From Candidatus Omnitrophota bacterium (GTDB lineage: Bacteria > Omnitrophota > Gorgyraeia > Aquiviventales > Aquiviventaceae): 64,000 nucleotides of DNA. The notes beneath the pieces were generated by a model. The model did not search any database. It saw nothing but the letters and a program-made list of their open reading frames with translations, and was not told the DNA's origin. The stretch covers positions 27,235 to 91,234 of the forward strand of contig JACPAY010000002.1 in assembly GCA_016180575.1 (NCBI GenBank). Reading direction: 5' to 3'. This document shows, in pieces, positions 1,866 to 56,886 of this stretch. Position 1 is the stretch's first letter. Each line of letters opens with the position of its first letter. The translations under genes were made by a program, and so were the position numbers.

Positions 1866-3086
1866 ATGACCCGCTCCATACCGTGGGCACCTCGCATCCA
1901 ATACGCGGCGGTGGTGGCGTTCGCCGCGGTCCTCCCGCTCGGGCAGGCGCCAGCCGAGATCACCCTGGTGATCGGCCTGGCGGCCTGGGTGTTCCGCGCC
2001 GTGCGGGAACGGCGCGGGTCCCAGCTGCTGAGGAATCCCCTCAGCGGGCTCCTGGTCCTCTGGTTCCTGGCGGCACTCGTCTCCATGCTGAACTCCGTTG
2101 ATCCGGCGGCGAGCCTGCACGGCCTGCGCAAGCTCCTGAAGGGGTTCGGCCTCTACTTCCTCGTCGTCGACACGGTCGGCTCCCGGGATGCCCTCCGCGG
2201 CGTCGTTGCCGGATCGCTGGCGGGCCTCAGTCTCGTCGTGGGAGACGGCCTGTGGCAGTGGGCCGCTGGCCGCGATCTCATCTACGGCCACGTCCCGGTC
2301 AACGAGTTGCCGACCGGCAAGACCATCCTGCGGTTGTCGGCGATGTTCGGCCACTCGGCGAGCCTGGCGATGTACCTGGTCAGTTGGGCTCCCCTGGCGA
2401 TCGCGGCCGGGCTGGCCGGGGGGCGGCGATGGCGGCGTTGGCTGTTCGGTCTGGGCGCGCTGGCCGCCGTGGTCCTCGTGTTCAGCCGGACCCGCGGGGG
2501 GATCCTTGGGTTTGCGTGCGCGCTCCCGCTCATGAGCTGGTGGCTGCGCAGCTGGATTCCCGCGGCGGTGGGGGTGGCGGCCGCGGCGCTGCAGGTCGCC
2601 ACGGTGCCGCCGGCGGTGGCCGAGTGGGCGGCGGCGATGCCGACGCTGCTGCATCAATTCACGGAGCCGGAGCGGCTCATGTATTGGCAGGCGGCGCTGC
2701 GGATGGTGCAGGCCCATCCGCTCATCGGCGTCGGGGTCAACACGTTCGTCAAGGCATATCCCTCCTATCGCGTCGCGGGCGACCCGTATGCGGCCCTGGG
2801 CCCCTATGCGCATAACCAGTACCTGCAGGTGGCGGCCGAGCTGGGGCTGGTCGGCCTTGCCGTATTCGCGGGGGTCCTGGTCCGGCTCGGTCTTGCGCTG
2901 CGCCGGGGCCTCGCCGCGCGGTCCGGGCACCCGTTCGAAGCGGCCGTCGCCGCGGGCGTGGGGGCGGGGCTCGTGGGCTACCTGATCCTCGGGGGCCTTG
3001 AGTCCTCGCTCTTCTACGGGCGGGGCTCGCTCATCTTCTGGACGCTGGCAGGACTGTTGGTTGCGGTCGAGCGGCGATACAAATGA
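1866..3086 (+). CDS. O-antigen ligase / Wzy family membrane protein
   Basis: 406 aa, multi-TM, with the motif GVGVNTFVKAYPSY...YAHNQYLQVAAELGLVGLAVF. Its stop TGA lies inside the family-A repeat. Confidence 0.75.
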   Translation: MTRSIPWAPRIQYAAVVAFAAVLPLGQAPAEITLVIGLAAWVFRAVRERRGSQLLRNPLSGLLVLWFLAALVSMLNSVDPAASLHGLRKLLKGFGLYFLVVDTVGSRDALRGVVAGSLAGLSLVVGDGLWQWAAGRDLIYGHVPVNELPTGKTILRLSAMFGHSASLAMYLVSWAPLAIAAGLAGGRRWRRWLFGLGALAAVVLVFSRTRGGILGFACALPLMSWWLRSWIPAAVGVAAAALQVATVPPAVAEWAAAMPTLLHQFTEPERLMYWQAALRMVQAHPLIGVGVNTFVKAYPSYRVAGDPYAALGPYAHNQYLQVAAELGLVGLAVFAGVLVRLGLALRRGLAARSGHPFEAAVAAGVGAGLVGYLILGGLESSLFYGRGSLIFWTLAGLLVAVERRYK

Positions 3087-3152
3087 GGAGTCCGGTTCCC
3101 GCTTTCCCATCGGAGAACTCCAGGAAACCGGGAACCGGACCCGGGACTATCG
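3080..3152 (+). repeat. Family-A palindromic element, copy 1 (caaATGAGGAGTCCGGTTCCC...GGGAACCGGACCCGGGAC)
   Basis: Four copies in the window: 3080, 6765 (short), 19270 and 31410. A nested inverted repeat is present, and copies 1 and 3 differ by a compensatory CCCG/CGGG versus CCCT/AGGG change. Confidence 0.8.
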
Positions 3153-4229: not shown

Positions 4230-5339
4230 ATGAGCGCCGCCCCCGATCGCATCCTCGTCATCAACCCGTTCGGGATCGGGGACGTGCTGTTCACGACCCC
4301 CCTCGTGCGGGCGGTGCGCCGCGCCTTTCCCTCGAGCCGCCTCTGCTACCTCTGCAACCGACGGACGGAAATGATCCTCCGGACCAACCCGCATCTCGAC
4401 CGCCTGTTCGTGTACGAAAAGGACGAGCTGGTCGCGCGCTGGCGCGCGTCCCCCCGGCAGGGCCTGCGCGAGGTGGGCCGGCTGTTCCGGCGGCTGCGAC
4501 AGGAGCGGTTTGACCTCGTGATCGATCTCTCCCTGGGCGAGCGCTACGGGTTTCTTCTGAAGTGGTTCGGCGCCCCCCGCCGCATCGGGTTCACCTACCG
4601 CAACCGCGGCCGGTTCCTCTCGGACGCGCTGGGGATCGACGGCTACCACGAGGTCCACGTGGTGGAGTACTACCGGCGGCTGCTGCGGTTCATGGGGATG
4701 CGGCTGCTGGAGGATGCGTTGGAGCTTGAGCCGTCCGAGGAGGATCAGCGATGGGCCGCGGAGTGGCTGCGGTCCCGCGGCCTGGGGAGCGGCCGGTTCC
4801 TCGTCGGGATGGTCCCGGCGGGCGGCGTGAGCTGGGGGGTGAGCGCGCCGTTCCGGCGGTGGAACGCCGAGGGGTTCGCGGCGGTGGGCGATTGGCTGAT
4901 CGAGCGCCACGGCGCGCAGGTGCTCCTCTTCGGCGAGGCGGCGGATGGGTCCATCTGCCAGATGGTGGCGCAGCTCATGCAGCATCCCACCCTCGACGTG
5001 AGCGGGCAGACGACGCTGGGCCAGTTCGTCGGGCTGCTTGGCCGCCTGGACTTGGTCATCTGCAATGACGGCGGGCCGCTCCACCTCGCCGTCACGCAGG
5101 GGGTGAAGACCGTCTCGGTCTTCGGACCGGTTGACCCGCGCGTGTACGGGCCGTACCCGCCCGGCCCCAGGCACCGGGTGGTGTACCGGGCTGACCTGAC
5201 GTGCCGCCCCTGCTATCGCAATTTTCGGCTGCCGCCGTGCCCCTATGAGCGCGCCTGCCTGCGCGAGCTCGGCGCGGAGGCGGTCATGGAGGCCTGCGGC
5301 GACCTCCTCGCGGACGCAACCCCGATCGGCCGCGGATGA
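4230..5339 (+). CDS. ADP-heptose:LPS heptosyltransferase (GT9), second paralog
   Basis: Motifs ILVINPFGIGDVLFTTPL and ICNDGGPLHLAVTQGVKTVSVFGP. Length 369 aa. Confidence 0.8.
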   Translation: MSAAPDRILVINPFGIGDVLFTTPLVRAVRRAFPSSRLCYLCNRRTEMILRTNPHLDRLFVYEKDELVARWRASPRQGLREVGRLFRRLRQERFDLVIDLSLGERYGFLLKWFGAPRRIGFTYRNRGRFLSDALGIDGYHEVHVVEYYRRLLRFMGMRLLEDALELEPSEEDQRWAAEWLRSRGLGSGRFLVGMVPAGGVSWGVSAPFRRWNAEGFAAVGDWLIERHGAQVLLFGEAADGSICQMVAQLMQHPTLDVSGQTTLGQFVGLLGRLDLVICNDGGPLHLAVTQGVKTVSVFGPVDPRVYGPYPPGPRHRVVYRADLTCRPCYRNFRLPPCPYERACLRELGAEAVMEACGDLLADATPIGRG

Positions 5340-5358
5340 GCGGCCTCGCCACCCCACA

Positions 5359-5523
5359 GCTGCGGGGCCTGGCAGGGTGGTGTCTCGCCGGACCGCTCGG
5401 CGTGCCCCACCGTGGCACGCCGTCGCTCGGCTTCCGGGGCTCGCTCGTCCCGCCTGCGGCGGGACACCATGGCCGCTCGCCCCGTCAGACGTCCGGCTCG
5501 ACATCCACCCTGCCACCCGCAGC
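5359..5523 (+). ncRNA. Candidate structured RNA or structured repeat, family E copy 1
   Basis: About 85 % identical to 49803..49972. The closing helix is GCUGCGGG/CCCGCAGC plus GGCAGGGUGG/CCACCCUGCC. Compensatory changes between the copies occur in three helices, so structure is conserved. Confidence 0.45.
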
Positions 5524-5673
5524 CACGCGGTGGCTCAATGGCCCGACGGGTGACGCGGAGCGAGCCCACCGCCCGCGCGCAGTCCCGCCATCGGCGGGAC
5601 GAGCACGGACGGTGGGGTCGCGCAGCGGCAGGACCCGTCGGGCGATCGAGCCAGGGCGGGGGGGAGCGAGTCA

Positions 5674-6771
5674 ATGAGCCCGGTGCCGTTCCTTGAGGTG
5701 GCGCCGTCCCCCGCGCTCCAGGGGGAGCTGGAGGCGGCGGTGCGCGGGGTCCTCGCGGGCGGGCAGTACATCCTCGGGGAGCGGGTGCGCGCGTTCGAAG
5801 AGGCGCTGGCCGCCCGGTGCGGCTGCCGCTTCGGCGTGGGCGTGAACTCGGGCACCGACGCGCTGGAGCTTGCCCTGCGCGCCTGCGGGATCGGGCCGGG
5901 CGATGAGGTGATCGTGCCCGCGTTCACCTTCATGGCCACCGCGCTCGCGGTGACCTGCGCCGGGGCGACGCCGGTCCTGGCGGATATCGACGAGGCGTCC
6001 TATGGCATCGACGTGGAGGACGCCGCCCGCCGCGTGAGCGCCAAGACGAAAGCCATCATCCCCGTCCACCTCTACGGCCAGCCCTGCGACCTGGACGGGG
6101 TGCTGCGCCTCGCGGAGCGCCGGCGCCTGTGCGTCATCGAGGACTGCGCGCAGGCGATCGGCGCCGCCTACCGCGGACGAGCGGTGGGCGGCTTCGGCGC
6201 GGCCGGGTGCTTCAGCTTCTACCCGACGAAGAACCTGGGCGCGGCCGGAGACGGCGGGGCGGTCGTCACCAACGACCCCGCGATCGCCGAGCGGCTGTCG
6301 CTGCTACGCCAATGCGGCACGCGCGACAAGGTGCGCTATGAGATGGTCGGGCGCAACAGCCGGCTGGACGAGCTGCAGGCGGCCATCCTCCTCGTCAAGC
6401 TCAAGTATCTGGACGGCTGGAATGAGGCCCGGCGGGCGCGGGCGGGGTGGTACCGCGCGGCATTCGAGCAGGAGCGGGTGGAGGGGGTCGGCCTGCCCCA
6501 GGAGCTCGCGGAGCGGCGCCACGTCTACAACGTGTTCACCGTGCGCGTGAGCGAGCGGGACCAGGTGCGGGCAGAGCTGGCGTCGGGGGGCATCGAGACC
6601 ATGGTGTACTATGCGCGCCCGCTGCACCTGGATTCGTTCTACGAGGGCGGCGCGGCCAAGCGGGGAGACCTGCCGCGGGCCGAGCAGGCCGCCCGCGAGG
6701 CGCTGGCGCTGCCGATGTATCCCGGGCTCAGCCGGGAAGCGATCGCGGCGGTCGTGCGCGCCTTCAAATGA
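5674..6771 (+). CDS. DegT/DnrJ/EryC1/StrS family sugar aminotransferase (PLP-dependent)
   Basis: 365 aa with motifs GQYILGERVRAFEE, FYPTKNLGAAGDGGAV and YGQP. Its stop TGA lies inside the short family-A copy. Confidence 0.85.
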   Translation: MSPVPFLEVAPSPALQGELEAAVRGVLAGGQYILGERVRAFEEALAARCGCRFGVGVNSGTDALELALRACGIGPGDEVIVPAFTFMATALAVTCAGATPVLADIDEASYGIDVEDAARRVSAKTKAIIPVHLYGQPCDLDGVLRLAERRRLCVIEDCAQAIGAAYRGRAVGGFGAAGCFSFYPTKNLGAAGDGGAVVTNDPAIAERLSLLRQCGTRDKVRYEMVGRNSRLDELQAAILLVKLKYLDGWNEARRARAGWYRAAFEQERVEGVGLPQELAERRHVYNVFTVRVSERDQVRAELASGGIETMVYYARPLHLDSFYEGGAAKRGDLPRAEQAAREALALPMYPGLSREAIAAVVRAFK

Positions 6772-9147: not shown

Positions 9148-10263
9148 ATGCCAGTCTGCGATCTAGTCTTGATCAGTTGGAATCATCTCGAGCAGACGCG
9201 GCCGTGCCTGGAGACGCTCTTCCGGTCGACCCGGACGCCGTGCCGCCTCTTCATCGTGGACAACGGCAGCACACCTGCGGTGCGCGCGTTCCTCGCCGGG
9301 GTGAAGCCGCAGGGCGAGATCCGGGAGGTCGTGCTGCTGCAGAACGACTCCAATGAGGGGTTCCCCCGCGCCGTGAACCGCGGCATCCGCGCCTCCTCGG
9401 CGCCGTTCGTCTGCCTCCTCAACAACGACCTGCGGTTCGCCGCGGGGTGGCTGGAGGAGATGCTCGAGGTGGCGCGCGCCGGCCCCTCGATCGGCGCGGT
9501 CAACCCGACCAGCAACACGTTCGGCAATGTCCCTCCGGACGGCCTGCCGCTCGACGCCTACGCCGACCGCCTCCGGGCGCGTCACGGCCGGTACACGGAA
9601 GTCGGGATGTGCATCGGGTTCTGCATCCTGACGAAGCGGGAGGTGCTGGATCGGCTGGGGGGGCTCTCCGAGGAGGTCGAGCGGATCTTCTTCGAGGACG
9701 AGGATTTCTCCATCAGGGTCCAGCAGGCCGGGTTTCGGTGCGTCGTGGCGCATGCGGCGTACGTCTTTCACGCGGAGCATCAGACGGTGAAGAAGATGCC
9801 GGAGCGCGAGGCGCTCTTCGTGAGGAACCAGCGGTGGTGCCACGCGAAGTGGGGCCGGTGGGTCCGCATGGCCTGGCCGCGCTTCACGCCGCTCACCCCG
9901 GGCTCGGAGGAGCTGCGCCGGTGGCTGGAGGAGCTGCTGGGCTGGGCCAGGCGCCGGACCCACGTCTACGTCTACTGCCCCCTGCCGCCCCGGATGACGC
10001 GGGACGCGCTGTTCGGCTCCGTCGGCCTCGTCCCGCACGCGGACATCCGGTGGCATCCGGTGGCCGCCGGCTGGGCCCGCTGGGCGGCCGCCGGGCGCAT
10101 CCTGCGGCGGCGGAAGAAGCGGTTCGATATCATCGTGGCGCCGGACGAGCGGTGGCGGCGGGCGCTTGAGCGCCTGGCGTGGGTGCACCGCGCGCAGGTG
10201 GTCCCCGCCGCGCACGCCGAGGAACTGGAGGCGCAATGGGAACGGTCCCGCTCTCGGTTGTGA
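9148..10263 (+). CDS. GT2 glycosyltransferase
   Basis: Motifs LFIVDNGST and LLNNDLRFAAGWLEEM. Length 371 aa. Confidence 0.8.
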   Translation: MPVCDLVLISWNHLEQTRPCLETLFRSTRTPCRLFIVDNGSTPAVRAFLAGVKPQGEIREVVLLQNDSNEGFPRAVNRGIRASSAPFVCLLNNDLRFAAGWLEEMLEVARAGPSIGAVNPTSNTFGNVPPDGLPLDAYADRLRARHGRYTEVGMCIGFCILTKREVLDRLGGLSEEVERIFFEDEDFSIRVQQAGFRCVVAHAAYVFHAEHQTVKKMPEREALFVRNQRWCHAKWGRWVRMAWPRFTPLTPGSEELRRWLEELLGWARRRTHVYVYCPLPPRMTRDALFGSVGLVPHADIRWHPVAAGWARWAAAGRILRRRKKRFDIIVAPDERWRRALERLAWVHRAQVVPAAHAEELEAQWERSRSRL

Positions 10264-13035: not shown

Positions 13036-15699
13036 ATGAAACCGCCCGTGTTCATCGTCGGATCGGGCGGGTCCGGCACCACCCTCCTTCGGTTGATGCT
13101 GAACGCGCACCCCCACCTCGCGATCCCGCCGGAATCGAACTTCGTCCCGGAGGTGTGGAAGGCGTTCGAGCGCGCGCAGCCCTGCAGCCCGGACACGCGC
13201 CGGGAAATTCTGCGCTTTCTGGAGGGGTTTCCCGGCTACCATGACTTCCAGCTCGACCGCGCCCGCGTCGAGGCCCGGCTGGATGCGCTCTCCCGGCCCA
13301 TGCTGTCGGACGTGCTCGACGCCATCTACCGCGAATACGCCGAGCGGCACGGCAAGTCGCGGTGGGGCGACAAGACGCCCGGCTACGTCGAGCAGCTCAG
13401 GCGGCTCAACGCGCTCTTTCCGAACTGCCTGGTCATCCACCTGATCCGCGACGGCCGGGATGCGGCGCTCTCCATGCTCGCCCGGGGCGTCGGGCCCCGC
13501 ACCCTCTACGAGGCGGCCAGGGAATGGGTGGGGCGCGTCCGGCGGGGGCGTCGCGACGGCGCGCAGGTGCTGGGGAGCGCCCGCTACCTGGAGGTCTATT
13601 ACGAGCGGCTCGTCGCCGAGCCCCGGGAAACGCTGCAGCGCGTCTGCGCGTTCGTCGGCGAGCCTATGGATGAGGTGCTGCTGGCCTTCTACCGCGACGC
13701 GAGCCGGCACATCCCTGAGGCGGAGCGGCAGAAGCACGCGGCGACGACCCGCCCGGTGACGACCGAGCGGGTGGGGCGGTGGGAGCGGGACATGCGCCTG
13801 CTGGACGTACTGATCGTGCAGGCGGTTGCAGGGTCGCTGCTCGCGGAGCACGGCTACGCGCTGAAGCGCTCGCCGCTGGCCGCGCCGGTCAGCGCCGCGG
13901 TCTGGTGCCGCCTGGCGGCCGAGCGGTTGCTGCGAACGCCCAAAAAGCTCTACAATAGCGTCGCCAAACGGCTCACCAAAAAAAGGGGTCAGACCCCTTT
14001 TGCCGAAAAGGGGTCTGACCCCTCTGAGCGCCAGGCGCTGTCGGTGGTCATCATCGCGCGCAACGAGGAGCGGCGGATCGGCCGGTGCCTTTCGAGCGTG
14101 CAGTGGGCGGATGAGATCATCGTCGTGGACGGGATGAGCGAGGACCGGACGGCCGAGATCTGCCGGCAGATGGGGGCGCGGGTCGTGTCGCACCCCTTTG
14201 AGGGGAGCTTTGCAAAGGAGCGAAATCTCGGGATGGAGCACGCCCGGGGTGAGTGGGTGCTGCAGCTTGACGCCGACGACGTGGTCACGCCGGCGTTCCG
14301 GGAGGCGGTGGCGCGGATGCTGAAAACGCCCCAGCCCCACGAGGCGTTCAAGTTCAGGCGGAAGAGTTTCCTGATGGGGCGATTCATGCGCCACGGCGGC
14401 TGGTACCATGAGCTGCCGAACCTCGTGCGGCGGACGGTCCGCTACGAAGGGCTGGTCCATGAGCGTCCGGTGATCCGAGGCACCATCGGCCGGCTGGACG
14501 CCGACGTGGAACACCATCCTTGCGACGACCTGACATCGTTCCTGGACCGGCACAACCGCTACACGACGCTCAGCGCCCAGGAGCTGGCCGGCCGGGGCGA
14601 GCGGCTGACCGAGGCCCAATGGCGCGCGCGCCTCGTCCGGAAGCCGTGGAAGACGTTCTGGAAGACCTGCGTCAAGAAACAGGGGTTCCGGGAGGGGATG
14701 CACGGCCTGGTGTTCTCGCTCTTCTTTGCCGGTGTGGAGCTCATCAAGTGGGCGAAGGTCTGGGAGCGCTCACTGCGCGCCCCCGGCATGCCGCCGGGGG
14801 ACGAGCCGATGGCCGTCCGCGCCGCGCCGCCGGGCGCCGCCCCGTCGAGGGCAGCCCACCGTGAGACGCTGTCGGTCGTCCTCATGACGAAGAACGAGGA
14901 GGCGCGCCTTTCGGCCTGCCTCGACCAGGTCGTCGGATGGGCGGATGAGATCGTCGTCATCGATGACCTGAGCACCGACCGGACCGTGGAGATCGCCCGG
15001 CGCTATACCGACAAGGTCTTCGCCTTCGCCTTGGAGGACAACCACGACCGGCAGTGGAACCGGGGGATCGAGCGCGCCACCGGCGAATGGGTCCTCCACA
15101 TCGATGCGGACGAGGTGGTGACGCCCGCGCTCCGGGAGGCGATTGACCGGCGGCTCGCGGGGGCGGAGGGCTACGGCGCATTTGAGCTGATGCGGAAAAA
15201 CTTCTTTCTGGGCCGCCCGATGCGCGACGGCGGCTGGTACCACCGGCACCTCGTCCTGTTCCGCCGCCGGCTGTCGCGGTGCGTGGGGCAGGGGATCCAC
15301 GTGCGGCTGCAGGTGGACGGCCGCATCGGGTTCCTGGATGCCGAGATCGAGCACTACCCCTTCAGCTCCCTCGCGCAGTTCGTCGAGCGGCAGAACCACT
15401 ACACCGGCGTCGAGGCCCGCGTCCTCTTGGCGGAGCGCGGCGCGCCGAGCCTGCGGGTCCTCCGCTACCAGCTGACGGTGCGGCCGGTGAAGCTGTTCTG
15501 GAAGAGCTACATCAAGCATCGGGGCCGCCGCGAGGGGGTGCACGGGCTCGTGTTCGCGCTCCTCTACGCGTTCGCCCACGTGATGCTGTGGGCCAAGGTC
15601 TGGCAGCTGAGCCTGTCGGAGGCGCCGCCCGCCTCCGCGGCGGCTGCGCAGCCGAACCAGGAGCCTGAGCTGACGCCATGGCACGCCAGTCCGACGTGA
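13036..15699 (+). CDS. Sulfotransferase domain followed by two tandem WaaE/KdtX-like GT2 domains in one stop-free frame (fusion or unseparated genes)
   Basis: The N-terminus VFIVGSGGSGTTLL is a PAPS-binding P-loop sulfotransferase. LSVVIIARNEERRIG starts at about 14040 and LSVVLMTKNEEARLS at about 14870. An AT-rich hairpin element lies in-frame at the first junction. Confidence 0.55.
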   Translation: MKPPVFIVGSGGSGTTLLRLMLNAHPHLAIPPESNFVPEVWKAFERAQPCSPDTRREILRFLEGFPGYHDFQLDRARVEARLDALSRPMLSDVLDAIYREYAERHGKSRWGDKTPGYVEQLRRLNALFPNCLVIHLIRDGRDAALSMLARGVGPRTLYEAAREWVGRVRRGRRDGAQVLGSARYLEVYYERLVAEPRETLQRVCAFVGEPMDEVLLAFYRDASRHIPEAERQKHAATTRPVTTERVGRWERDMRLLDVLIVQAVAGSLLAEHGYALKRSPLAAPVSAAVWCRLAAERLLRTPKKLYNSVAKRLTKKRGQTPFAEKGSDPSERQALSVVIIARNEERRIGRCLSSVQWADEIIVVDGMSEDRTAEICRQMGARVVSHPFEGSFAKERNLGMEHARGEWVLQLDADDVVTPAFREAVARMLKTPQPHEAFKFRRKSFLMGRFMRHGGWYHELPNLVRRTVRYEGLVHERPVIRGTIGRLDADVEHHPCDDLTSFLDRHNRYTTLSAQELAGRGERLTEAQWRARLVRKPWKTFWKTCVKKQGFREGMHGLVFSLFFAGVELIKWAKVWERSLRAPGMPPGDEPMAVRAAPPGAAPSRAAHRETLSVVLMTKNEEARLSACLDQVVGWADEIVVIDDLSTDRTVEIARRYTDKVFAFALEDNHDRQWNRGIERATGEWVLHIDADEVVTPALREAIDRRLAGAEGYGAFELMRKNFFLGRPMRDGGWYHRHLVLFRRRLSRCVGQGIHVRLQVDGRIGFLDAEIEHYPFSSLAQFVERQNHYTGVEARVLLAERGAPSLRVLRYQLTVRPVKLFWKSYIKHRGRREGVHGLVFALLYAFAHVMLWAKVWQLSLSEAPPASAAAAQPNQEPELTPWHASPT
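13978..14026. repeat. Perfect 17-bp-stem hairpin (AAAAGGGGTCAGACCCCTTTT gccg AAAAGGGGTCTGACCCC) embedded in-frame
   Basis: It has family-C-like architecture around a TCAGA/TCTGA core. The local AT-rich, Lys-rich codons are atypical for this genome. TGA occurs in both alternative frames but not in the coding frame. Confidence 0.6.
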
Positions 15700-18456: not shown

Positions 18457-19554
18457 ATGCCTGAGCCGGTCCGTTTGGGCCTGATCGGCGCCGGGCGGTG
18501 GGGGCGCGTCCACCTCCGGACCCTCCTCTCGCTCGGGGACCGCGTCCGGCTCACGCACCTGTGCACCACCAAGCCGGCTGCGGCCGACCTCTTGCCGTAC
18601 CCGGTGAGCGTCGTGCCCGACTGGCGGCAGCTCCTCCGGGCGCCGTGCGATGCGCTGATCATCGCGACGCCTCCCGCGTACCATCCCGAGATGCTCGAGG
18701 CCTGCCTGGACGCCGCCAAACCGTGCCTGGTGGAGAAGCCGCTGTGCCTCGACGTCGCCACTGCCGAGCGGCTCCACGAGCGCATCCGGGCCTCAGGCGT
18801 CCCGGTGCTGGTCAACCACACCCACCTCTTCGCGCCGGCGTATCGCGCCCTGAAGCGGGCGGTGGCGGAGGGCGGGGAGCCGATCCGGATCCTCCTCTCG
18901 GAGGGGATGGGCTTCGGCCCGTTCCGGACCCACACCCCCACCCTCTGGGATTGGGGTCCGCATGACGTGAGCCTCTGCCTCGACCTCCTGGGGGAATCCC
19001 CGCGCGGCGTGGAGGCGCTGGGCGGCCCGCGCAGCCCGGACGGCGACCCGGAGCTGGTCAGCCTGCGCCTCGAGTTTCCGGGGGGCGCCTGCGCCTGGAT
19101 CCAGACGGGGCGGCTCGCCGCCAAGAAGCGGCGGAGCCTGGCGGTCATCACCAACAGCCGGCTCTATCTCCTCGACGACCTGGCGGCCGAGCCGCTGACG
19201 GTCGCTCCCATCCAGTTCTCAGAACGGTACACCGATGGCGTGCCGGAGCCGCCGGCCCCTGTGCCGCTACAAATGAGGAGTCCGGTTCCCTCTTTCCCTT
19301 CGGAACACTCGGGGAAACAGGGAACCGGACCCGGGACTGGCATGGCGACGATGGCCCATGTCCTGACCTATTTCCTGGACGGGCTGGCCGGAGGCGACCG
19401 CAGCCAGTTCGGGACCGGGCTTGCGCTGGAGGTGACCCGCGTGCTGGCCGCCTGCGAGCGGGCGCGCATCTCCCGGTATCAGATACCGGTTGAAGGAAGC
19501 CGCTCTTTCAGGCCGGTATCTGATACCGGAGAGGGACATGGCGCCGTTCCGTGA
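18457..19554 (+). CDS. Gfo/Idh/MocA-family oxidoreductase carrying an in-frame family-A element
   Basis: N-terminus RLGLIGAGRWGRVHL, and DALIIATPPAYH. The C-terminal third contains the repeat translated as QMRSPVPSFPSEHSGKQGTGPGT. Confidence 0.7.
   Translation: MPEPVRLGLIGAGRWGRVHLRTLLSLGDRVRLTHLCTTKPAAADLLPYPVSVVPDWRQLLRAPCDALIIATPPAYHPEMLEACLDAAKPCLVEKPLCLDVATAERLHERIRASGVPVLVNHTHLFAPAYRALKRAVAEGGEPIRILLSEGMGFGPFRTHTPTLWDWGPHDVSLCLDLLGESPRGVEALGGPRSPDGDPELVSLRLEFPGGACAWIQTGRLAAKKRRSLAVITNSRLYLLDDLAAEPLTVAPIQFSERYTDGVPEPPAPVPLQMRSPVPSFPSEHSGKQGTGPGTGMATMAHVLTYFLDGLAGGDRSQFGTGLALEVTRVLAACERARISRYQIPVEGSRSFRPVSDTGEGHGAVP
19270..19340 (+). repeat. Family-A element copy 3 (inside a CDS, in-frame)
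   Basis: caaatgaggagtccggttccctctttcccttcggaacactcggggaaacagggaaccggacccgggactgg. Confidence 0.8.
19473..19528. repeat. Family-C REPIN-like element (CCGGTATCAGATACCGG ... CCGGTATCTGATACCGG)
   Basis: Two self-palindromic 17-mers in inverted orientation separated by a 22-nt spacer. It overlaps the 3' end of the oxidoreductase and the 5' region of the methyltransferase. Confidence 0.8.
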
Positions 19555-23093: not shown

Positions 23094-23785
23094 GCCGCGT
23101 CCTGGCCTCCCCCCTGGTCCGAGCGGTGCAGCAGCATCTTGAGGGGCTGCGCGCGCTCGGGGTCACCGCGGTGCCGGCGTCCCCCGTGGGCGCAGCCCCT
23201 CCGACTGGGGCAAAGGGCGGCGCTTCAAAGGAGGAGCGGTTGAGCCGGCTCGCCCGCGAGGTCGAGCGCTGCCGGCGCTGCACGCTCTACCGCACGCGCA
23301 CCCACGCCGTCGTCAGCGACGGCTCGCCGCATGCGCGCCTGGTCTTCATCGGCGAGGCGCCCGGACGCGACGAGGATCTCCAGGGCAAGCCGTTCGTCGG
23401 CGCGGCCGGCAAGCTCCTCACGAAGATGATCGAGGCGATGGGCCTCGCGCGCGAGGCGGTGTACATCTGCAACGTCCTCAAGGACCGGCCCCCCGGCAAC
23501 CGGACGCCGCTGCCGGAGGAGGTCGAGGCCTGCCTGCCGTTCCTGCAGGAGCAGCTCGCCATCATCCGGCCGGCGGTCATCTGCACGCTGGGGGCGGTCG
23601 CGGCCAAGGCGCTCCTGGGGCCGCATGTCGCCATCACCAAGGTCCGCGGCGAGGTCAGGGAGTATCAGGGGGTTCCGCTGGTGCCCACGTTCCATCCGGC
23701 GTACCTCCTGCGCAATCCGGACGCCAAGCGATACGCCTGGGCCGACCTCAAGAAAGTAAAGCGGCTGCTTGAGAGAGAGCAATGA
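23090..23785 (+). CDS. Uracil-DNA glycosylase, family 4
   Basis: Motifs CRRC and LVFIGEAPGRDEDLQGKPFVGAAGKLL. Confidence 0.85.
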   Translation: MSRVLASPLVRAVQQHLEGLRALGVTAVPASPVGAAPPTGAKGGASKEERLSRLAREVERCRRCTLYRTRTHAVVSDGSPHARLVFIGEAPGRDEDLQGKPFVGAAGKLLTKMIEAMGLAREAVYICNVLKDRPPGNRTPLPEEVEACLPFLQEQLAIIRPAVICTLGAVAAKALLGPHVAITKVRGEVREYQGVPLVPTFHPAYLLRNPDAKRYAWADLKKVKRLLEREQ

Positions 23786-25986
23786 TGGATCCATCGAAAT
23801 CCCGTGTGGCCGCGGGTGACGCGGAGCCGGGGACCCCGTCGCCTGCCCGCAGGCCGAGGCCGAGGACAGCCGACGGGGTGGCGGCGCGGCAGGACCCGCG
23901 GCCGACGATTGCTGAGGTCGCCTTCAATCTGCCGCTCGACAAGTCGTTCCACTACCTCATCCCGGAGGCGATGCGCCAGACGCTCGCGCCCGGGATGCGG
24001 GTGGCGGCCCCGTTCGGCCCTCGCGAGCGCATCGGCTTCGTCCTCAAGGTTGTGGCCGAGAGCCCCGTGAAGGAGCTGAAGGAGATCCGCCGCGTCCTGG
24101 ACCCGCGGCCGGTGATCGGCGAGGAGCAGTGGGCGCTGGCGTCGTGGCTGTCCACCTACTACTGCTGCAGCATGGGCGAGGCGCTGGCCACGATGGTGCC
24201 TGGCGGCCTGCGCCTCCGAGCGGGGGCGGGTCCTGCCGCCTCGGGCACTCCGCCTGCCGTCCTCGTCCCTGACGGGACTGCGGCCGGCGGCGGAGGCCTC
24301 CCCTCGGCGTCACCCGTCCCCACGGGTGTTGTGATGTTGACCGCGCATCAGCGGCAGGCGCTGCCGCCCATCCTCGAGGCGCTGGAGGCGAAACGCTTCG
24401 CCTCCATCCTCCTCTTCGGGGTCACCGGGTCAGGGAAGACCGAGCTCTACCTGCAGGCGATCGACCGCGCGCTGCGCCAGGGACGCTCCGCCATCTGCCT
24501 CATCCCGGAGATCGCGCTCACGCCGCAGACGACCGACCGCTTCGTCGAGCGCTTCGGCGGCGGCGTCGCGGTCTGGCACAGCCGCATGAGCGCACGAGCT
24601 CGCTCGCGCGACTGGATGCGGATGAGCGACGGGGCGTGCCGGATCGTGGTCGGGGCCCGCTCGGCGGTCTTCGCCCCGGTGCAGCGCCTGGGGCTCATCA
24701 TCATCGATGAAGAGCACGAGCCGACCTACAAGCAGGAGGATGCCCCGCGCTACCACGCCCGCGAGGTCGCCATGGCCCGCGCGCGGCTCGCCGGCGCCGC
24801 CGTCGTGCTGGGGAGCGCCACGCCGTCCGTGGAGAGCTACTATGCCGCCGCGCGGCGGGCGGGGGGTGTCGTGACGCTGCCGGAGCGGATCGCGGGACGG
24901 GGGCTGCCGGCGGCGGAGGTCATCGACATGCGGGAGGAGATGAGCAGCCGCCGCCGCTTCGGCCCTCTCTCAGCCCGCCTGGAGCGGGCGCTCGCGCAGA
25001 CCGTGGAGCGCGGGGAGCAGGCCATGCTCCTGCTCAACCGGCGCGGGTTCGCGCGGGTGGCGCAGTGCAAAACGTGCGGGGCGGTCGAGCGGTGCGCGCG
25101 CTGCTCCGTCCCGCTCGTCTACCACGCCGGCCGCCGGGAGCTGGTCTGCCACTATTGCAACTTCCATGAGCCGCCGCGGGAGCTCTGCCGCCAGTGCCGG
25201 AAGGGCTACCTGAGCTTTCGGGGGAGCGGGACGGAGCGGGTCGAGTCCGAGCTGCACCGGCTCTTTCCCGTGGCGTCCATCGCCCGGATGGACCGGGACA
25301 CCACCGCGCGCCGCGGCAGCCACCGCGAGCTCTACGAGGCGGTCAAGACGCGCCAGGTGAACCTCCTCGTCGGCACGCAGATGATCGCCAAGGGGTTCGA
25401 TTTCCCGCAGGTGACGCTCGTCGGCGTGGTGTCGGCGGACACGGCGCTCAACCTGCCGGATTTCCGGGCCGGCGAGCGGACGTTCGACCTCCTGACGCAG
25501 ATGGCGGGACGGGCGGGGCGGGGGGAGCGGCCGGGGCGGGTGCTGATCCAGACTTTCTGCCCGGGCCACTACGCGATCCAGGCCGCCAAGGCGCACGACT
25601 ACCTGGGATTCTACGCGCAGGAGATCCGGATGCGGCGAGCGCTGCGGCTGCCGCCCTTCGTGCACCTCATCGAGCTGACGGTGCTCGGCTCCTCGCTGCC
25701 GCGCGTGGAGGAGGCGGCGCAGTGGCTCGCGGGCCGCCTGCGGCGGGCGCTCGCCCGCCGCCTGCCTGCCGCGCCGGGGAAAGGCGCGACTCGCGCGGCG
25801 CAGGCAGGCGCCGTCCTGCTCGGGCCGGCGCCGCACCGCATCCCGCGGCTGCGCCGGGCCTACCGGGTGCACCTCCTCCTCAAGGCCCGGTCGGTCGAGG
25901 CGGTGACGCCGATCGTGCGCCGGGTCCTCGCGCCGGGGCGGAAGGCGAAGGGCCTCCCCGTGATCGTCAACGTCGACCCACTGTGA
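23782..25986 (+). CDS. priA: Primosomal protein N' (PriA helicase)
   Basis: Contains the 3' DNA-binding domain NLPLDKSFHYLIP, Walker A GVTGSGKT, Cys-rich zinc motifs (CKTCG, CARC, CHYC, CRQC) and a C-terminal region. Its ATG overlaps the UDG stop as ATGATG, which implies an N-terminal extension of about 38 aa read through the family-B repeat. Confidence 0.85.
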   Translation: MMDPSKSRVAAGDAEPGTPSPARRPRPRTADGVAARQDPRPTIAEVAFNLPLDKSFHYLIPEAMRQTLAPGMRVAAPFGPRERIGFVLKVVAESPVKELKEIRRVLDPRPVIGEEQWALASWLSTYYCCSMGEALATMVPGGLRLRAGAGPAASGTPPAVLVPDGTAAGGGGLPSASPVPTGVVMLTAHQRQALPPILEALEAKRFASILLFGVTGSGKTELYLQAIDRALRQGRSAICLIPEIALTPQTTDRFVERFGGGVAVWHSRMSARARSRDWMRMSDGACRIVVGARSAVFAPVQRLGLIIIDEEHEPTYKQEDAPRYHAREVAMARARLAGAAVVLGSATPSVESYYAAARRAGGVVTLPERIAGRGLPAAEVIDMREEMSSRRRFGPLSARLERALAQTVERGEQAMLLLNRRGFARVAQCKTCGAVERCARCSVPLVYHAGRRELVCHYCNFHEPPRELCRQCRKGYLSFRGSGTERVESELHRLFPVASIARMDRDTTARRGSHRELYEAVKTRQVNLLVGTQMIAKGFDFPQVTLVGVVSADTALNLPDFRAGERTFDLLTQMAGRAGRGERPGRVLIQTFCPGHYAIQAAKAHDYLGFYAQEIRMRRALRLPPFVHLIELTVLGSSLPRVEEAAQWLAGRLRRALARRLPAAPGKGATRAAQAGAVLLGPAPHRIPRLRRAYRVHLLLKARSVEAVTPIVRRVLAPGRKAKGLPVIVNVDPL
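23806..23905 (+). repeat. Family-B palindromic element copy 1 (about 100 nt, ends GGCCGCGGGT...ACCCGCGGCC)
   Basis: Four copies: 23806, 35505, 49537 and 56788 (inverted). The internal pairing is CCCCGTCG/CGACGGGG. A conserved left-flank TCGAA motif precedes every copy. Confidence 0.8.
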
Positions 25987-30330: not shown

Positions 30331-32661
<2,331 letters not shown>

Positions 32662-35470: not shown

Positions 35471-35504
35471 AAAAGTGCCAGGCTGCTCCATCGAAGACTC
35501 CCGT

Positions 35505-35606
35505 GCGGCCGCGGGTGACGCGGAGCCGGGGACCCCGTCGCCTGCCCGCAGGCCGACCAGGCCGAGGACAGCCGACGGGGTGGCGGCGCGGCAGGACCCG
35601 CGGCCA
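35505..35606 (+). repeat. Family-B element copy 2 (in the 5' leader of the permease gene)
   Basis: Near-identical to copy 1. Confidence 0.8.
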
Positions 35607-35621
35607 AACCGGGGGGCCGAG

Positions 35622-47123: not shown

Positions 47124-47888
47124 ATGCGGACGCTCAAGCTGACCGTCGCCTACGACGGGACGCGCTACGCCGGCTGGCAGGCGCAGCGTCGAAGCCGCAC
47201 GGGCGGCAAGCCGACGATCCAGGAGACACTGGAGCGGGCGCTGCGCCGGATCCTGCGGGAGCCGGTGCGGGTCGTCGGCAGCGGCCGGACAGACGCCGGC
47301 GTCCACGCCGAATCACAGGTCGCCCACCTCCGGACGCGCACGACCCTCCCCGTCGCCGGGCTGCTGCGCGGCGTCAACGCCTTGCTGCCGGCCGACCTGG
47401 CCGTGACGCGCATCGAAGAGGTCCGCGGCTCGTTCCATGCCCGGTTCGGGGCGTCTCGCAAGCGATACCGCTACCGCCTCTTCACCGGTCCGGTGGCGCC
47501 CCCGTTCATCCGGCCCTACGTCCATCACGTCCGCGCCCCCCTGAACGTCGCCCTGATGCGGCGGGAGGCGGCGGCCCTGCGCGGTACGCACGACTTCAAG
47601 GCCTTCGCCCGCGCCGCAGCGGTCCCGCGCGGCACGACCCGCCGGACCATCACGGACATCCAGGTGCGCAGACGCGGCGGCGAGTTGCAGGTTGACGTCG
47701 AGGGCAATGGGTTCCTCCACACGATGGTCCGCACGATCGCTGGCACGCTGATCGACGTCGGGCGGGGCCGCCTGCCGCCCGGGACGGTGCGCCGCATGCT
47801 GCGCACCGGCTCGCGGTCGCTCGCCGGCACGGTGGCGCCGGCGCAGGGGCTCACACTGCGCGCCGTGACCTATCGGGACGCCCCCTGA
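47124..47888 (+). CDS. truA: tRNA pseudouridine(38-40) synthase
   Basis: Motifs KLTVAYDGTRYAGWQ and VVGSGRTDAGVHA. Confidence 0.85.
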   Translation: MRTLKLTVAYDGTRYAGWQAQRRSRTGGKPTIQETLERALRRILREPVRVVGSGRTDAGVHAESQVAHLRTRTTLPVAGLLRGVNALLPADLAVTRIEEVRGSFHARFGASRKRYRYRLFTGPVAPPFIRPYVHHVRAPLNVALMRREAAALRGTHDFKAFARAAAVPRGTTRRTITDIQVRRRGGELQVDVEGNGFLHTMVRTIAGTLIDVGRGRLPPGTVRRMLRTGSRSLAGTVAPAQGLTLRAVTYRDAP

Positions 47889-49435
47889 TGGCGAAGCCGA
47901 CCGCGGCTGCCGCCATCCACGCCGGCGGCCACGAGCGATGGGGCTCAAAGCTGGGCGTCATCCTCGCGGTGGCCGGCAGCGCGGTGGGCCTTGGCAACTT
48001 CCTCAGGTTCCCGGTCCAGGCGGCGCAGAACGGCGGCGGCGCCTTCATGATCCCGTACTTCCTCGCCCTCATCTTCCTGGGGATCCCGCTGGCGGTGGTG
48101 GAGTGGACGATCGGCCGCCACGGCGGCATGCACGGGCACAACACCGCCGCCGGCGCCTTCAGCGCGATGTGGCCCTGGCGCGGGGCCAAGTACCTGGGGC
48201 TGCTGGGGGTGTTCGGCCCGTGGGTGATCTTCCTCTATTACACCTACATCGAGAGCTGGACCCTGGCCTTCAGCTACTTTTCCTTGGCGGGCCTCCTGGG
48301 ACAGGCCAGGGAACAGGCCGCGATGACCGGGTTCCTCCAGGCGTTCCAGGGTCTTTCGCCGAACGCCATCTTCCCGCATATCGGCACTGCCTACTTCTTC
48401 TTCCTCCTGACGTTCGCCGTGAACCTCCTCGTCGTCGCCGGGGGGATCCAGAAGGGCATCGAGTTCGTTTCCAAGGTGTTCCTGCCGCTGCTCTTTCTCT
48501 TCGCGTTCGTGCTGGCCGTCCGTGTCTTCTGGATCGGCGCGCCGGACCCGGCCCGGCCGGACTGGCACGTGGTTAACGGCCTCGGCTACCTTTGGAACCC
48601 GAACCTGTCCGTCTTGGGCAGCTCCCGCGTGTGGCTGGCGGCGGCCGGGCAGGTCCTCTTCACCCTGAGCGTCGGCATCGGCGCGATCGTGACCTATGCG
48701 AGCTACCTCAGGCGGGATGACGACGTCGCGCTCTCCTCGCTGACCGCCGTCGGCACCAACGAGTTCGCGGAGGTGATCCTGGGCGGCTGCCTGGTCATCC
48801 CGGCCGCCTTCGCGTTCTTCGGCCCGGAGCAACTGGCCGCCATCGCCAAGGGCGGCGCCTTCAACCTGGGGTTCGTCACCATGCCGCTCGTGCTGGGGCA
48901 GCTCTCCTGGGGCCAGCTGTTCGGGTGCCTCTGGTTCCTCCTCCTCTTCCTCGCCGGCATCACCTCATCAATCTCGCTCGCCCAGCCGGTCATCGCCTTC
49001 TTCCAGAACGTCTACGGCTGGCGGCGGGCCAGGGCGGTGGCGGTCTTCGGCGCGGTGAGCTTCGTGCTGAGCCAGCCGGCGATCCTCTGGCTCGGCCGGG
49101 GCGCGCTGGATGAGATGGATTTCTGGGGCGGGACGGTGTGCCTGGTCGTCTTCGGCCTGCTGGAGGTGCTGCTCTTTGCCTGGGTCTTCGGGATGGAGCG
49201 GGGCTGGCGCGAGATCCACCACAGCTCGGACATCCGCCTGCCAGGGTTCTTCCGGTGGGTCATCGCCTACGCCACCCCGGCCTACCTGCTCTTCGTCCTC
49301 GGCTTCTGGCTCTATGACAACGCGAAGACCACCATCAGCATGGCCGGCGTGGATGCCGCGAATCGGCCCTACGTCATCGGGGTCCGATGGATGCTGATCG
49401 GCCTTCTCCTGGTCATGGCGCTGACGATGCGCTGA
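47888..49435 (+). CDS. Sodium:neurotransmitter symporter (SNF) family transporter
   Basis: N-terminus RWGSKLGVILAVAGSAVGLGNFLRFP, with 11-12 TM segments. TGATG overlap with truA. Confidence 0.8.
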   Translation: MAKPTAAAAIHAGGHERWGSKLGVILAVAGSAVGLGNFLRFPVQAAQNGGGAFMIPYFLALIFLGIPLAVVEWTIGRHGGMHGHNTAAGAFSAMWPWRGAKYLGLLGVFGPWVIFLYYTYIESWTLAFSYFSLAGLLGQAREQAAMTGFLQAFQGLSPNAIFPHIGTAYFFFLLTFAVNLLVVAGGIQKGIEFVSKVFLPLLFLFAFVLAVRVFWIGAPDPARPDWHVVNGLGYLWNPNLSVLGSSRVWLAAAGQVLFTLSVGIGAIVTYASYLRRDDDVALSSLTAVGTNEFAEVILGGCLVIPAAFAFFGPEQLAAIAKGGAFNLGFVTMPLVLGQLSWGQLFGCLWFLLLFLAGITSSISLAQPVIAFFQNVYGWRRARAVAVFGAVSFVLSQPAILWLGRGALDEMDFWGGTVCLVVFGLLEVLLFAWVFGMERGWREIHHSSDIRLPGFFRWVIAYATPAYLLFVLGFWLYDNAKTTISMAGVDAANRPYVIGVRWMLIGLLLVMALTMR

Positions 49436-49450
49436 AGCATCGGCGCGACC

Positions 49451-49518
49451 ATGGTGTCAGACACCATATTCCTGACCGGGGCAGCGAGGCGACCGAGCTG
49501 AACATGGTGTCTGACGGC
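49451..49518. repeat. Family-C variant arms (ATGGTGTCAGACACCAT ... CATGGTGTCTGAC)
   Basis: GTGTCAGACAC is a covarying version of GGTATCAGATACC around the same TCAGA/TCTGA core. Confidence 0.7.
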
Positions 49519-49536
49519 TCTGTCGAACACCTCCGT

Positions 49537-49637
49537 GTGGCCGCGGGTGACGCGGAGCCGGGGCCCCCGCCGCCTGCCCGCAGGCCGACGAGGCCGAGGA
49601 CAGCCGGCGGGGTGGCGGCGCGGCAGGACCCGCGGCT
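49537..49637 (+). repeat. Family-B element copy 3
   Basis: gtgtggccgcgggtgacgcggagccggggcccccgccgcctgcccgcaggccgacgaggccgaggacagccggcggggtggcggcgcggcaggacccgcggc. Confidence 0.8.
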
Positions 49638-49656
49638 CAGCGAAGTATTCGATAGA

Positions 49657-49676
49657 GCAGTGTCTGACACCATATT
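49657..49676. repeat. Family-C variant arm (AGCAGTGTCTGACACCATAT)
   Basis: Third GTGTCTGACAC arm of the cluster. Family-B copy 3 sits between arms. Confidence 0.6.
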
Positions 49677-49679
49677 TAA

Positions 49680-49790
49680 ATGACGCGGGCTGGGTGGGTG
49701 TTCCTGGTGGTGTCGTGGGGCGCGATCCTGGCGCTGTGCGCCTTCTGCTTCAGTCGAGTCTTTCGGCACCACCGGCAGCGACGGTCATGA
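49680..49790 (+). CDS. Possible small single-TM membrane peptide (36 aa, MTRAGWVFLVVSWGAILALCAFCFSRVFRHHRQRRS)
   Basis: ATG directly after an AT-rich catatttaa box. One hydrophobic helix followed by a basic tail. No SD, so it would be leaderless. Confidence 0.25.
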   Translation: MTRAGWVFLVVSWGAILALCAFCFSRVFRHHRQRRS

Positions 49791-49802: not shown

Positions 49803-49972
49803 GGTCCCGCTAGCTGCGGGTCCTGGCAGGATGGTGTCTCGCCGGACCGCTCGGCCCGCCCCACCGTGGCGGGCCTTCGCTCGGCTTCAGGGGTTCGCTC
49901 GTCCCTCCGGTTCACCGAGGGGACACCATGGCCGCTCACCCCTTCAGACGTCCGGCTCGACATCCATCCTGC
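49803..49972 (+). ncRNA. Candidate structured RNA or structured repeat, family E copy 2
   Basis: Homologous to 5359..5523. The covarying helices are GGCCCGCC/GGCGGGCC (versus GGCGTGCC/GGCACGCC), CCCTC/GAGGG (versus CCCGCC/GGCGGG) and GGCAGGATGG/CCATCCTGCC (versus GGCAGGGTGG/CCACCCTGCC). Confidence 0.45.
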
Positions 49973-50127
49973 CACCCGCAGCCAACAAGGACCCATGCCC
50001 GCCCGCACGACCGCGAGCCCCGGCATCGCAAGTCCCCTGTCACCCGCCAACCTTTTTCGCTTGACAGCGGAACCTGGAGGCTCCATAATTTCCAACAAAT
50101 GGTTGGTAAGGCATTGGGGGGGGAAGG

Positions 50128-50586
50128 TTGATGAGAGAGACGCAGCCGGTTGCGGTGAATGTGCCCCTAGAGCTTCAAAAGACCCTAGCGGAGCTTTTGA
50201 AGCTTGAGAAGGCAATGGATATCCTCGGCAAGCGGATTGCCGATCGCCGATGCTACGTTGATGCGCTCAAGCGAGTGCAGAACCATTTCAACGATCATCT
50301 GGAAACGTCCGAGTCCTCCAACCCCTCCTCGTCAAGCTCATCCTGCTCTTCCTCCAGCTCCATTCCAATTAGTGAATCAGCGGCACCTGTCACTTCCGCT
50401 TGTCTTGAGATTTTCAGGCAAGAACACGGCCCCCTCAGGTTGAGCTTTATTGAGAAACGACTTCGCGAACGGGGAGTTCGAGTGGGGCGAAACACGGCAT
50501 GGATGGCGATCAAGCGACTTGAGCAGAGGCACCGCATCCGTAAACGTAGCCGCGGTGTCTACGAGTTGATGAATGGTTCGAGCTAG
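50128..50586 (+). CDS. Hypothetical protein (152 aa) in a low-GC patch, with coiled-coil N-terminus, Ser-rich linker and basic C-terminal domain
   Basis: Its GC is markedly lower than the genome. GGGGGGAAGG lies upstream of the ATG. No recognisable family. Confidence 0.4.
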   Translation: MMRETQPVAVNVPLELQKTLAELLKLEKAMDILGKRIADRRCYVDALKRVQNHFNDHLETSESSNPSSSSSSCSSSSSIPISESAAPVTSACLEIFRQEHGPLRLSFIEKRLRERGVRVGRNTAWMAIKRLEQRHRIRKRSRGVYELMNGSS

Positions 50587-50724
50587 GGAATAAAAACAGG
50601 GCCAGTAGCTTCCACTACTGGCCCCGCAAAACTGATCGGTGCCCCGACTAGGAGACACGCGATCTGCGCTTTCGCGCTTTAATTTATTCTAAACCAATTG
50701 GAACTCCTGTCAAGCACTTTATGC

Positions 50725-51521: not shown

Positions 51522-51557
51522 CCACTACCGGCTCGACCACGCGGCTCGACCGCGCGG

Positions 51558-51586: not shown

Positions 51587-51595
51587 CCCTCGCTA

Positions 51596-56755: not shown

Positions 56756-56787
56756 AGCCGCGTCTGTTCCGTCGAACACCCCGCCTG

Positions 56788-56886
56788 GGCCGCGGGTCCT
56801 GCCGCGCCGCCACCCCACCGGCTGTCCTCGGCCTCGGCCTGCGGGCAGGCGGCGGGGGCCCCGGCTCCGCGTCACCCGCGGCCGGA
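56788..56886 (-). repeat. Family-B element copy 4, internal segment inverted relative to the other copies
   Basis: The plus strand reads the reverse complement of the copy 1-3 core, but retains the same left-flank gtcgaacacc motif seen in copy 3. Confidence 0.75.

Follow-up and report, generated by a model that had tools for sequence, protein, structure and literature searches.

A 64,000-nt stretch of the genome of a Candidatus Omnitrophota bacterium (contig JACPAY010000002.1; hereafter the window, with a GC content of ~71%) carries two copies of an element, which we call F1, that a first-pass annotation had put forward as a candidate novel structured RNA. [quoted passage not shown] It is likewise probable that F1 and a commoner group of 100-145 nt, F2, belong to one superfamily, in which F1 is the long subfamily (165-250 nt), and that this is a new family in an Omnitrophota lineage. 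Three observations lead to the mobile-repeat reading, namely copies that are present or absent at syntenic junctions, termini common to F1 and F2, and one 9-bp target-site duplication, and it is supported by copies that occur in both orientations, side by side, and once in frame within a gene. Our census stands at 3 F1 and at least nine F2-type copies in five genomes, with empty sites at four loci.

F1 copies and their covarying fold

The window contains the following F1 copies:

5359..5523, + strand: F1 copy A, 165 nt, 187 bits with the F1 covariance model (R1)
49813..49982, + strand: F1 copy B, 170 nt, with a hairpin loop 5 nt longer, 205 bits with the same model

The two-copy, ~165-nt, + strand element of the annotation is thus confirmed, with an identity of 87.9% over 173 columns (BLAST, E ~1e-56); the coordinates given there for copy B (49803-49972) were 10 nt too low. 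The copies differ by 16 substitutions and the 5-nt loop indel, and 149 of 165 positions are identical if the indel is not counted. Their consensus fold (RNAalifold, copies A and B) has 60 pairs: a closing stem of 8 bp is followed, past a bulge of 3 nt, by stems of 15 bp and 7 bp and then by a multiloop that bears two hairpin domains. The closing stem (GCTGCGGG...CCCGCAGC) and the 15-bp second stem make up the terminal inverted repeats.

All helices quoted in the annotation are present, and the covariation is stronger than it claimed: in the RNAalifold fold, 6 pairs have changed on both sides and none is broken, with 12 of the 16 substitutions compensated. One helix reads GGCGTGCC/GGCACGCC in copy A and GGCCCGCC/GGCGGGCC in copy B, a second reads GGCAGGGTGG/CCACCCTGCC and GGCAGGATGG/CCATCCTGCC, respectively, and the hairpin CCCGCC-TGC-GGCGGG of copy A has a longer form in copy B. 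Compared with shuffles, the fold has z-scores of -6.2 and -6.4 for copies A and B on the + strand and of -7.1 and -7.5 on the - strand, and as single-stranded DNA F1 reaches z = -7.05. Of the 60 pairs, all but one in copy A (59) and all but two in copy B (58) are Watson-Crick, which indicates that both strands fold equally well and that neither is favoured; the counts of G-U versus A-C are too few for a choice of strand. One F1 strand carries six GCTCG pentamers against 0.64 expected, an enrichment that becomes marginal once all pentamers are counted.

F1 has no match to any Rfam family, and the annotation likewise could not match it to RNase P, tmRNA, SRP or a known riboswitch consensus. Searching Rfam 15 at gathering thresholds over the whole window returned a tRNA as the sole match, and relaxing the threshold to E values of up to 10 over 5300-5700 added two noise matches only. 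BLASTN found no match to F1 in plasmids or phages, and one weak, irrelevant match to F2 in plasmids.

A third, divergent F1 copy was detected with the F1 covariance model in contig L102 (JGI 3300025157) at ~14850-15095 (34 bits, E = 2e-5). This copy sits in a 316-nt spacer between argJ and argB, on the strand opposite to both genes; the argJ-argB spacer of the window is 7 nt and represents the corresponding empty site. The L102 copy retains the terminal helix and the junction motifs CGCTCGGC, CCTTCGCTCGGC, TCGCTCGTCCC and GGGACACC.TG.CCGCTC, while its second and third stems have been replaced in sequence with pairing maintained. At the apex of its second hairpin lies a 78-nt branched insertion (L102 14919-14996) carrying the end-like motif CTGGACCCGCC, which suggests an element nested within an element. 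After this insertion was removed, the three copies could be aligned with 95% of cells paired, versus 37-49% in slid controls, and with 14 double-change pairs versus 0-3; none of 500 shuffles reached the observed values. Unpaired positions are 81% identical among the three copies and stem positions 67-71%, a difference that is not significant (p = 0.11-0.23).

Wider searches for F1 returned chance matches or none. The exact 20-mer TGTCTCGCCGGACCGCTCGG had 3 matches in GTDB species representatives, all by chance, and the exact 19-mer GACGTCCGGCTCGACATCC occurred at 85 loci in JGI metagenome contigs, none of which held the element by BLAST or nhmmer; the words used for these genome and metagenome scans later proved not to be conserved. 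Four end or interior words gave chance matches only in IMG/VR. A six-frame translation of copies A and B (concatenated), searched against 5.8 billion proteins to catch element copies miscalled as open reading frames (ORFs), matched nothing at E <= 0.001.

F2, shared ends and footprints of probable movement

Copy A lies between a family-9 glycosyltransferase (GT9) gene (4230-5339) and the DegT aminotransferase gene (5674-6771). The same two genes overlap by ATGA, with no spacer, in L005, L006, L007, L008, L009 and L097, six related contigs that represent at least four distinct sequences and whose DegT or DegT-region identity to the window is 83-87%. In the window the GT9-DegT spacer is 334 nt, about half of which is copy A, and the copy falls within an insertion of ~320 nt that is absent from the related genomes. 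The 150 nt from copy A to the DegT start are a separate palindromic repeat, and it was a BLAST search with the flanks that revealed this region (5523-5661) as a long palindrome with further copies in the window. We call this family F2. Six copies, in both orientations and 100-145 nt long, lie within the 64 kb and score 73-105 bits with the F2 covariance model:

5539..5645 (extended palindrome 5523-5661), + strand: F2, 76.5 bits, E 7e-16, also a self-complementary BLAST hit
23805..23906, + strand: F2, 100 bits, directly after the UDG-priA ATGATGG junction and read in frame at the priA 5' end
24219..24324, - strand: divergent F2, 72.8 bits, E 5e-15, in frame inside priA (ORF 23782-25986)
35504..35608, + strand: F2, 105 bits, between an ABC solute-binding-protein gene and a permease gene (Pfam)
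49516..49659 (core 49536-49640), + strand: full-length F2, 97.7 bits, between the SNF gene and a 36-aa ORF
56785..56886, - strand: F2, 88.6 bits, between argD and argF

The F2 alignment has double compensatory changes at 15 of 36 pairs. The copy at 5539-5645 starts 15 nt 3' of copy A and occupies the space up to the DegT ribosome-binding site; its 3' end is also found upstream of DegT in L096. Further F2-type copies occur in L009, L105 and L106, and one L009 copy shares 94.5% identity with a copy in the window, compared with 83% for the orthologous DegT proteins. Empty sites exist for F2 as well: argD and argF abut or overlap in L102 and L106, and the spacer from SNF to the small ORF, 244 nt in the window, is 13 nt in L102. 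The divergent copy within priA lies between two PriA domains, 3'BD (aa 45-140) and helicase (from aa 187). As for the copy at 23805-23906, PriA would have either a repeat-encoded N-terminal extension or a start at a GTG inside the repeat. Covariance-model matches at 62654-62752 (dapA) and 23998-24105 (priA 3'BD) were dismissed as chance matches to coding sequence.

F1 and F2 end in a common terminal helix, 5'-(variable 5-9 bp stem)CGGGTGRC ... GYCA-GGN-CCCG(stem)-3', with a 3-nt bulge on the same side in all members. The outermost 5-9 bp vary among copies with complementarity retained, and the interiors vary in length and sequence with self-complementarity kept. Read on the - strand, both F1 copies start GGCTGCGGGTGGC and end GCCAGG(A/C)CCCGCAGC, and F2 starts GGCCGCGGGTGAC and ends GGCAGGACCCGCGGCC. 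The conserved ends measure 11-13 nt and stand in inverted orientation, each with a small internal palindrome (e.g., CCGCG-GGTGA-CGCGG); the F2 copy at 49516-49659 has GGCTCTGTCGAA/TTCGATAGAGCA as its outer ends. Within the window, GGCYGCGGGTG and CAGG[AC]CCCGCRGC, the exact end motifs, are confined to the ends of F1 and F2 elements. A looser paired-end signature (CGGGTG[AGC]C, 50-260 nt, C[AT]GG[ACG]CCCG) recovers 6 of 6 F2 and 2 of 2 F1 copies in the window together with one chance match in priA coding sequence, against an expectation of 0.49 per shuffled window (maximum, 3), and it also matches in L009, L102, L105 and L106. F1 and the F2 copy at 5539-5645 have short interior motifs in common, such as GTCCCGCC-loop-GGCGGGACGAGC. 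Since F1 escapes detection by the F2 covariance model, the link between the two families rests on the common end signature and these short motifs.

A trace of an insertion event flanks the full-length F2 copy 3' of SNF (49516-49659), which is bracketed by a direct repeat:

49507..49515, + strand: left copy of the 9-bp target-site duplication GTGTCTGAC
49660..49668, + strand: right copy of GTGTCTGAC

Excising this F2 copy and one of the repeats rebuilds AACATGGTGTCTGACACCATATT, which matches at 21 of 23 positions an intact palindromic twin motif (49447-49471) located 50 nt upstream of the insertion. The palindromic motif, CATGGTGTC(A/T)GACACCATATT, thus occurs twice 3' of SNF (49447-49471 and 49500-49515 joined to 49660-49676), the latter occurrence being split by F2, and a related AAAGGTGTCAGACACCTTT is found twice at the matching place in L102 (~10105-10160). 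The motif may act as a terminator or operator. Around the F2 copy at 24219-24324, a direct repeat of 11 bp was rejected as a target duplication, as it is native priA coding sequence (EAL...EAL). Short-read contigs from several independent samples stop at or inside F1 and F2 repeats.

A third repeat family, of ~74 nt and 89-92% identity, is also present in the window:

3075-3152: third repeat family
19260-19338: third repeat family
31405-31482: third repeat family

Its hairpin, GTCCGGTTCCCG.TTTCC...GGAAA.CGGGAACCGGAC, begins at CAAATGAGGAG, an ATGA gene junction, and two of the copies read as the first 25 codons of the downstream ORF. Self-comparison of the window additionally revealed near-perfect palindromes at 13984-14023 (40 nt) and 19473-19529 (59 nt).

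Alternative readings of F1

One alternative, close to what the annotation had in mind, is that the element is a riboswitch-like leader or a small RNA gene present as two paralogs, each in control of a + strand gene that starts ~150 nt downstream. Both window copies are indeed on the + strand, 148-150 nt before an ATG preceded by a G-run (150 nt for copy A and 148 nt for copy B, with the G-runs as described); their multi-helix, covarying fold between genes resembles that of riboswitches and leaders, and since Rfam has no match for it, such an RNA would be new. We nevertheless regard this reading as very improbable. G-runs of at least 6 are common in the window, also before other start codons, and are a common ribosome-binding context in the genome. 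The genes next to the copies (DegT, argJ/argB and an orphan ORF) have no relation to one another, so that, unlike in riboswitches and leaders, gene context is not conserved, and neither is orientation fixed, the L102 copy being antisense to its neighbours. Copy A is missing from the orthologous operons, its flanks hold no promoter-like or terminator-like site, and the 150 nt that follow it are filled by an F2 repeat. F1 pairs are also almost all Watson-Crick, a further difference from riboswitches and leaders.

The surroundings of copy B offer another point against a leader function. This copy lies 3' of an SNF-family transporter gene (47888-49435) and a conserved small ORF, starting 22 nt past the stop codon of the latter, and is followed by a near-consensus promoter match, the low-GC orphan ORF 50131-50586 (no Pfam match) and a tRNA-Leu(UAA) gene (50725-50816):

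49680..49790, + strand: conserved, hydrophobic membrane ORF of 36 aa after the SNF gene (MTRAGWVFLVVSWGAILALCAFCFSRVFRHHRQRRS)
50061..50089, + strand: sigma-70-type promoter match TTGACA-17-CATAAT, with 11 of 12 consensus matches and 0.3 expected in region shuffles

The promoter match separates copy B from the orphan ORF and, if used, would place copy B outside the orphan-ORF transcript. In four related contigs, site B has an IS256-type transposase, cinA, or a GIY-YIG gene after SNF instead, and this varied content makes 50000-52000 look like an insertion hot spot. The 50000-52000 region is low in GC (58% vs 71%), and its tRNA-Leu(UAA) gene stands directly upstream of rplM-rpsI. Between the orphan ORF and the tRNA gene, on the - strand (50713-50596), we noted a promoter-like TTGACA-16-TAGAAT (11/12) followed ~60 nt on by a terminator-like site with a 14-bp stem and a T-tail, which could correspond to a small RNA of ~80 nt or simply to a terminator. 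The 36-aa ORF (MTRAGWVFLVVSWGAILALCAFCF...) aligns with an L102 ORF (MTTAGWVFLTLSWGAIIALCALGF...) that likewise follows SNF, and ORFs of similar size follow SNF in L104 and in the P0133 contig; no protein accession corresponds to it between MBI2104175 and MBI2104176, two of the proteins (MBI2104134-136 and MBI2104175-176) by which the window matches an NCBI metagenome-assembled genome labelled Candidatus Omnitrophica bacterium.

What stands of the original proposal, then, is a real element that is strongly structured, covarying and free of Rfam matches; a role as a gene-associated RNA acting on the downstream ATG is not supported. The annotation had also listed observations that would speak against a structured RNA. 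One of these, a copy-number and flank pattern typical of a MITE, is largely what we see (presence and absence among relatives, common termini and the F2 target duplication), whereas another, an absence of covarying homologs, is contradicted by the covariation observed. Covariation alone does not tell a functional RNA from a mobile palindrome, and compensatory changes are described as common in REPIN hairpins (Bertels and Rainey, PMC3116915). F2 covaries too, so that compensation characterizes this class of repeats as a whole, in line with what has been reported for REPINs (PMC3116915).

Another reading holds that F1 is a domesticated cis-acting RNA module, spread as DNA and kept because it supplies a useful stable hairpin in operon mRNA. 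Such a module could shield the upstream cistron from 3' exonucleases, serve as a processing site for RNase III or RNase E, dampen read-through, or reset translation of the gene downstream; effects of these kinds are reported for REP, ERIC and Correia elements. All copies are located inside or between genes that run in one direction, so they are probably transcribed, the fold is extremely stable and covaries, the junction motifs and the six one-strand GCTCG pentamers look conserved, several copies are followed by a strong G-rich Shine-Dalgarno sequence, and comparable RNA-level effects have been documented for Correia and ERIC elements (PMC10969869). Against this, orientation relative to transcription varies (F1 in L102 and 2 of 6 F2 copies), sites are empty in close relatives with the same operons, nearly all pairs are Watson-Crick so that no strand is favoured, and the GCTCG enrichment is marginal across all pentamers. 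On balance, we judge domestication to be unlikely.

The interpretation of F1 as a mobile element has its own difficulties, which should be weighed alongside these alternatives. F1 shows no clear target-site duplication: the candidates are a 6-bp ATGAGC at the composite site A and a 5-bp TGATG in L102, each of which would restore an upstream stop and a downstream start codon. Most F2 copies also lack a duplication, and none of at least 7 bp was found at other element boundaries. We found no autonomous parent element or matching transposase among the contigs covered, with Pfam scans of some of the window ORFs; the only transposase seen was the IS256-type gene in L102, whose flanks lack F1 and F2 end motifs. 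The outermost stem varies by compensation and is not the most conserved part of the element, and inverted repeats bound by transposases rarely show a variable, compensated outermost stem. In the L102 copy the junction motifs persist while the stems have been rewritten, which hints at a sequence-specific constraint within F1. Only 3 F1 copies are known, the exact-word scans of GTDB representatives, JGI metagenomes and IMG/VR having added none. Finally, F1 and F2 have a GC content of 76-85%, and prokaryotic MITEs are described as typically AT-rich (PMC10969869).

A further alternative concerns the mechanism of movement only. F1 could be a REPIN-type element moved by a RAYT (REP-associated tyrosine transposase) through single-stranded hairpin DNA, rather than a MITE moved by a DDE-type enzyme. 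This proposal draws on the GC-rich hairpins with conserved ends, variable spacer and frequent compensation, as in REPINs (PMC3116915). It also fits the small internal palindrome in each end, the lack of target-site duplications at most copies, the copies that adjoin or nest in one another, and the very stable fold of the single-stranded DNA. The clean 9-bp target duplication at one F2 copy is at odds with it, as we know of no target duplication reported for REP or REPIN elements. The elements are moreover longer and more branched than REPINs (~70-110 nt), lack a conserved GTAG-type tetranucleotide, and include one intragenic copy (priA). We hold movement by a RAYT to be rather unlikely.

Several other explanations were considered and set aside. 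Template and variable repeats of a diversity-generating retroelement do not apply, as the differences between copies A and B are not adenine-specific. Copies A and B are not the attL and attR ends of a 44-kb island, since the two repeats differ in sequence and the stretch between them is normal in GC and carries housekeeping genes. Integron attC sites were rejected on the basis of the ends, which are CGGGTGRC...CAGGNCCCG and not RYYYAAC...GTTRRRY, of the occurrence in both orientations, and of the location in conserved housekeeping operons. IS110 bridge RNAs and TnpB/IscB guide RNAs were rejected because no such gene adjoins either copy. Long homologues of DegT (512-525 aa) do not reflect read-through of an upstream element, as their extension is C-terminal.

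Relation to known repeats and possible mode of movement

Of the described systems, prokaryotic MITEs such as Correia/CREE, ERIC/IRU, RUP, Nezha and Chunjie offer many parallels. A 2024 review attributes to them terminal inverted repeats, transcripts of very stable structure, mutual insertion, and target duplications that become fainter over time (PMC10969869), and ERIC has size variants of 127 and ~168 bp (PMC2759123). F1 and F2 are similarly small and non-coding with terminal inverted repeats, and are dispersed mostly at gene junctions, in either orientation, with presence or absence among relatives. Their transcripts are predicted to be very stable stem-loops, copies are inserted beside or into one another, size variants arise from internal insertions, and one F2 copy has a target-site duplication. 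They differ from MITEs in that the outermost stem is variable and compensated while the subterminal bulged helix is invariant, and in that the F1 interior is branched into two domains rather than being a simple hairpin. Neither F1 nor F2 has sequence similarity to described families in Rfam, plasmids or phages.

In REPINs, inverted conserved ends flank a spacer whose main constraint is the ability to form a hairpin, and compensatory changes are common (Bertels and Rainey, PMC3116915). F1 and F2 share with them the inverted conserved ends, the pairing-constrained variable spacer, the compensation, the high GC content and the mostly extragenic location, but are longer and branched, with a 9-bp target duplication at one copy and one in-frame intragenic copy. 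The last feature recalls the Rickettsia palindromic elements (RPEs), in-frame intragenic copies that occur within protein genes without destroying them; the 2024 review that lists them also describes Correia and ERIC elements with RNase III or RNase E effects (PMC10969869). Like RPEs, which are palindromes of ~100-150 bp in frame in genes, F2 occurs in the linker of priA as well as at its 5' end. F1 and F2 are not related to RPEs in sequence, however; the host phylum and base composition are different, and most F1 and F2 copies are intergenic.

Returning to the mobile-element reading, we hypothesize that a trans-acting enzyme recognizes the bulged terminal helix and moves the element. The single clean 9-bp duplication suggests a DDE-type transposase, the alternative being a hairpin-recognizing enzyme of the HUH/RAYT type. 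Copies that lose their pairing would no longer be propagated, which could generate the compensatory pattern at the level of the element. Insertions would survive mainly at operon junctions, presumably because insertion there keeps or re-creates a stop codon upstream and a start codon downstream. With F1 lying within operons, co-transcription is probable, and the resulting RNA would fold into a hairpin of about -100 kcal/mol and so uncouple genes that used to overlap, most likely as a side effect and not as the reason for the existence of the element. A bolder proposal would be that F1 and F2 form a new class of structured mobile nucleic acid, in which the invariant bulged helix and the recurring, single-stranded GCTCG-type junction motifs bind a dedicated partner, either a protein or a ribonucleoprotein, and in which operon junctions keep their copies because these serve as RNA modules that reprogram translational coupling; we consider this quite unlikely.

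These results show that a mobile palindromic repeat, and not only a functional RNA, can give rise to clean compensation across multiple helices, a practical caution for RNA-discovery scans in GC-rich genomes. They also record, in what appears to be the first such account, structured insertion elements of at least three families from a high-GC, uncultivated lineage of Omnitrophota. Such elements separate overlapping genes of lipopolysaccharide and arginine operons, are found in frame within priA, and interrupt short-read assemblies. If the bulged terminal helix proves to be the recognition site of a specific enzyme, it would provide a tractable handle on how such repeats move.

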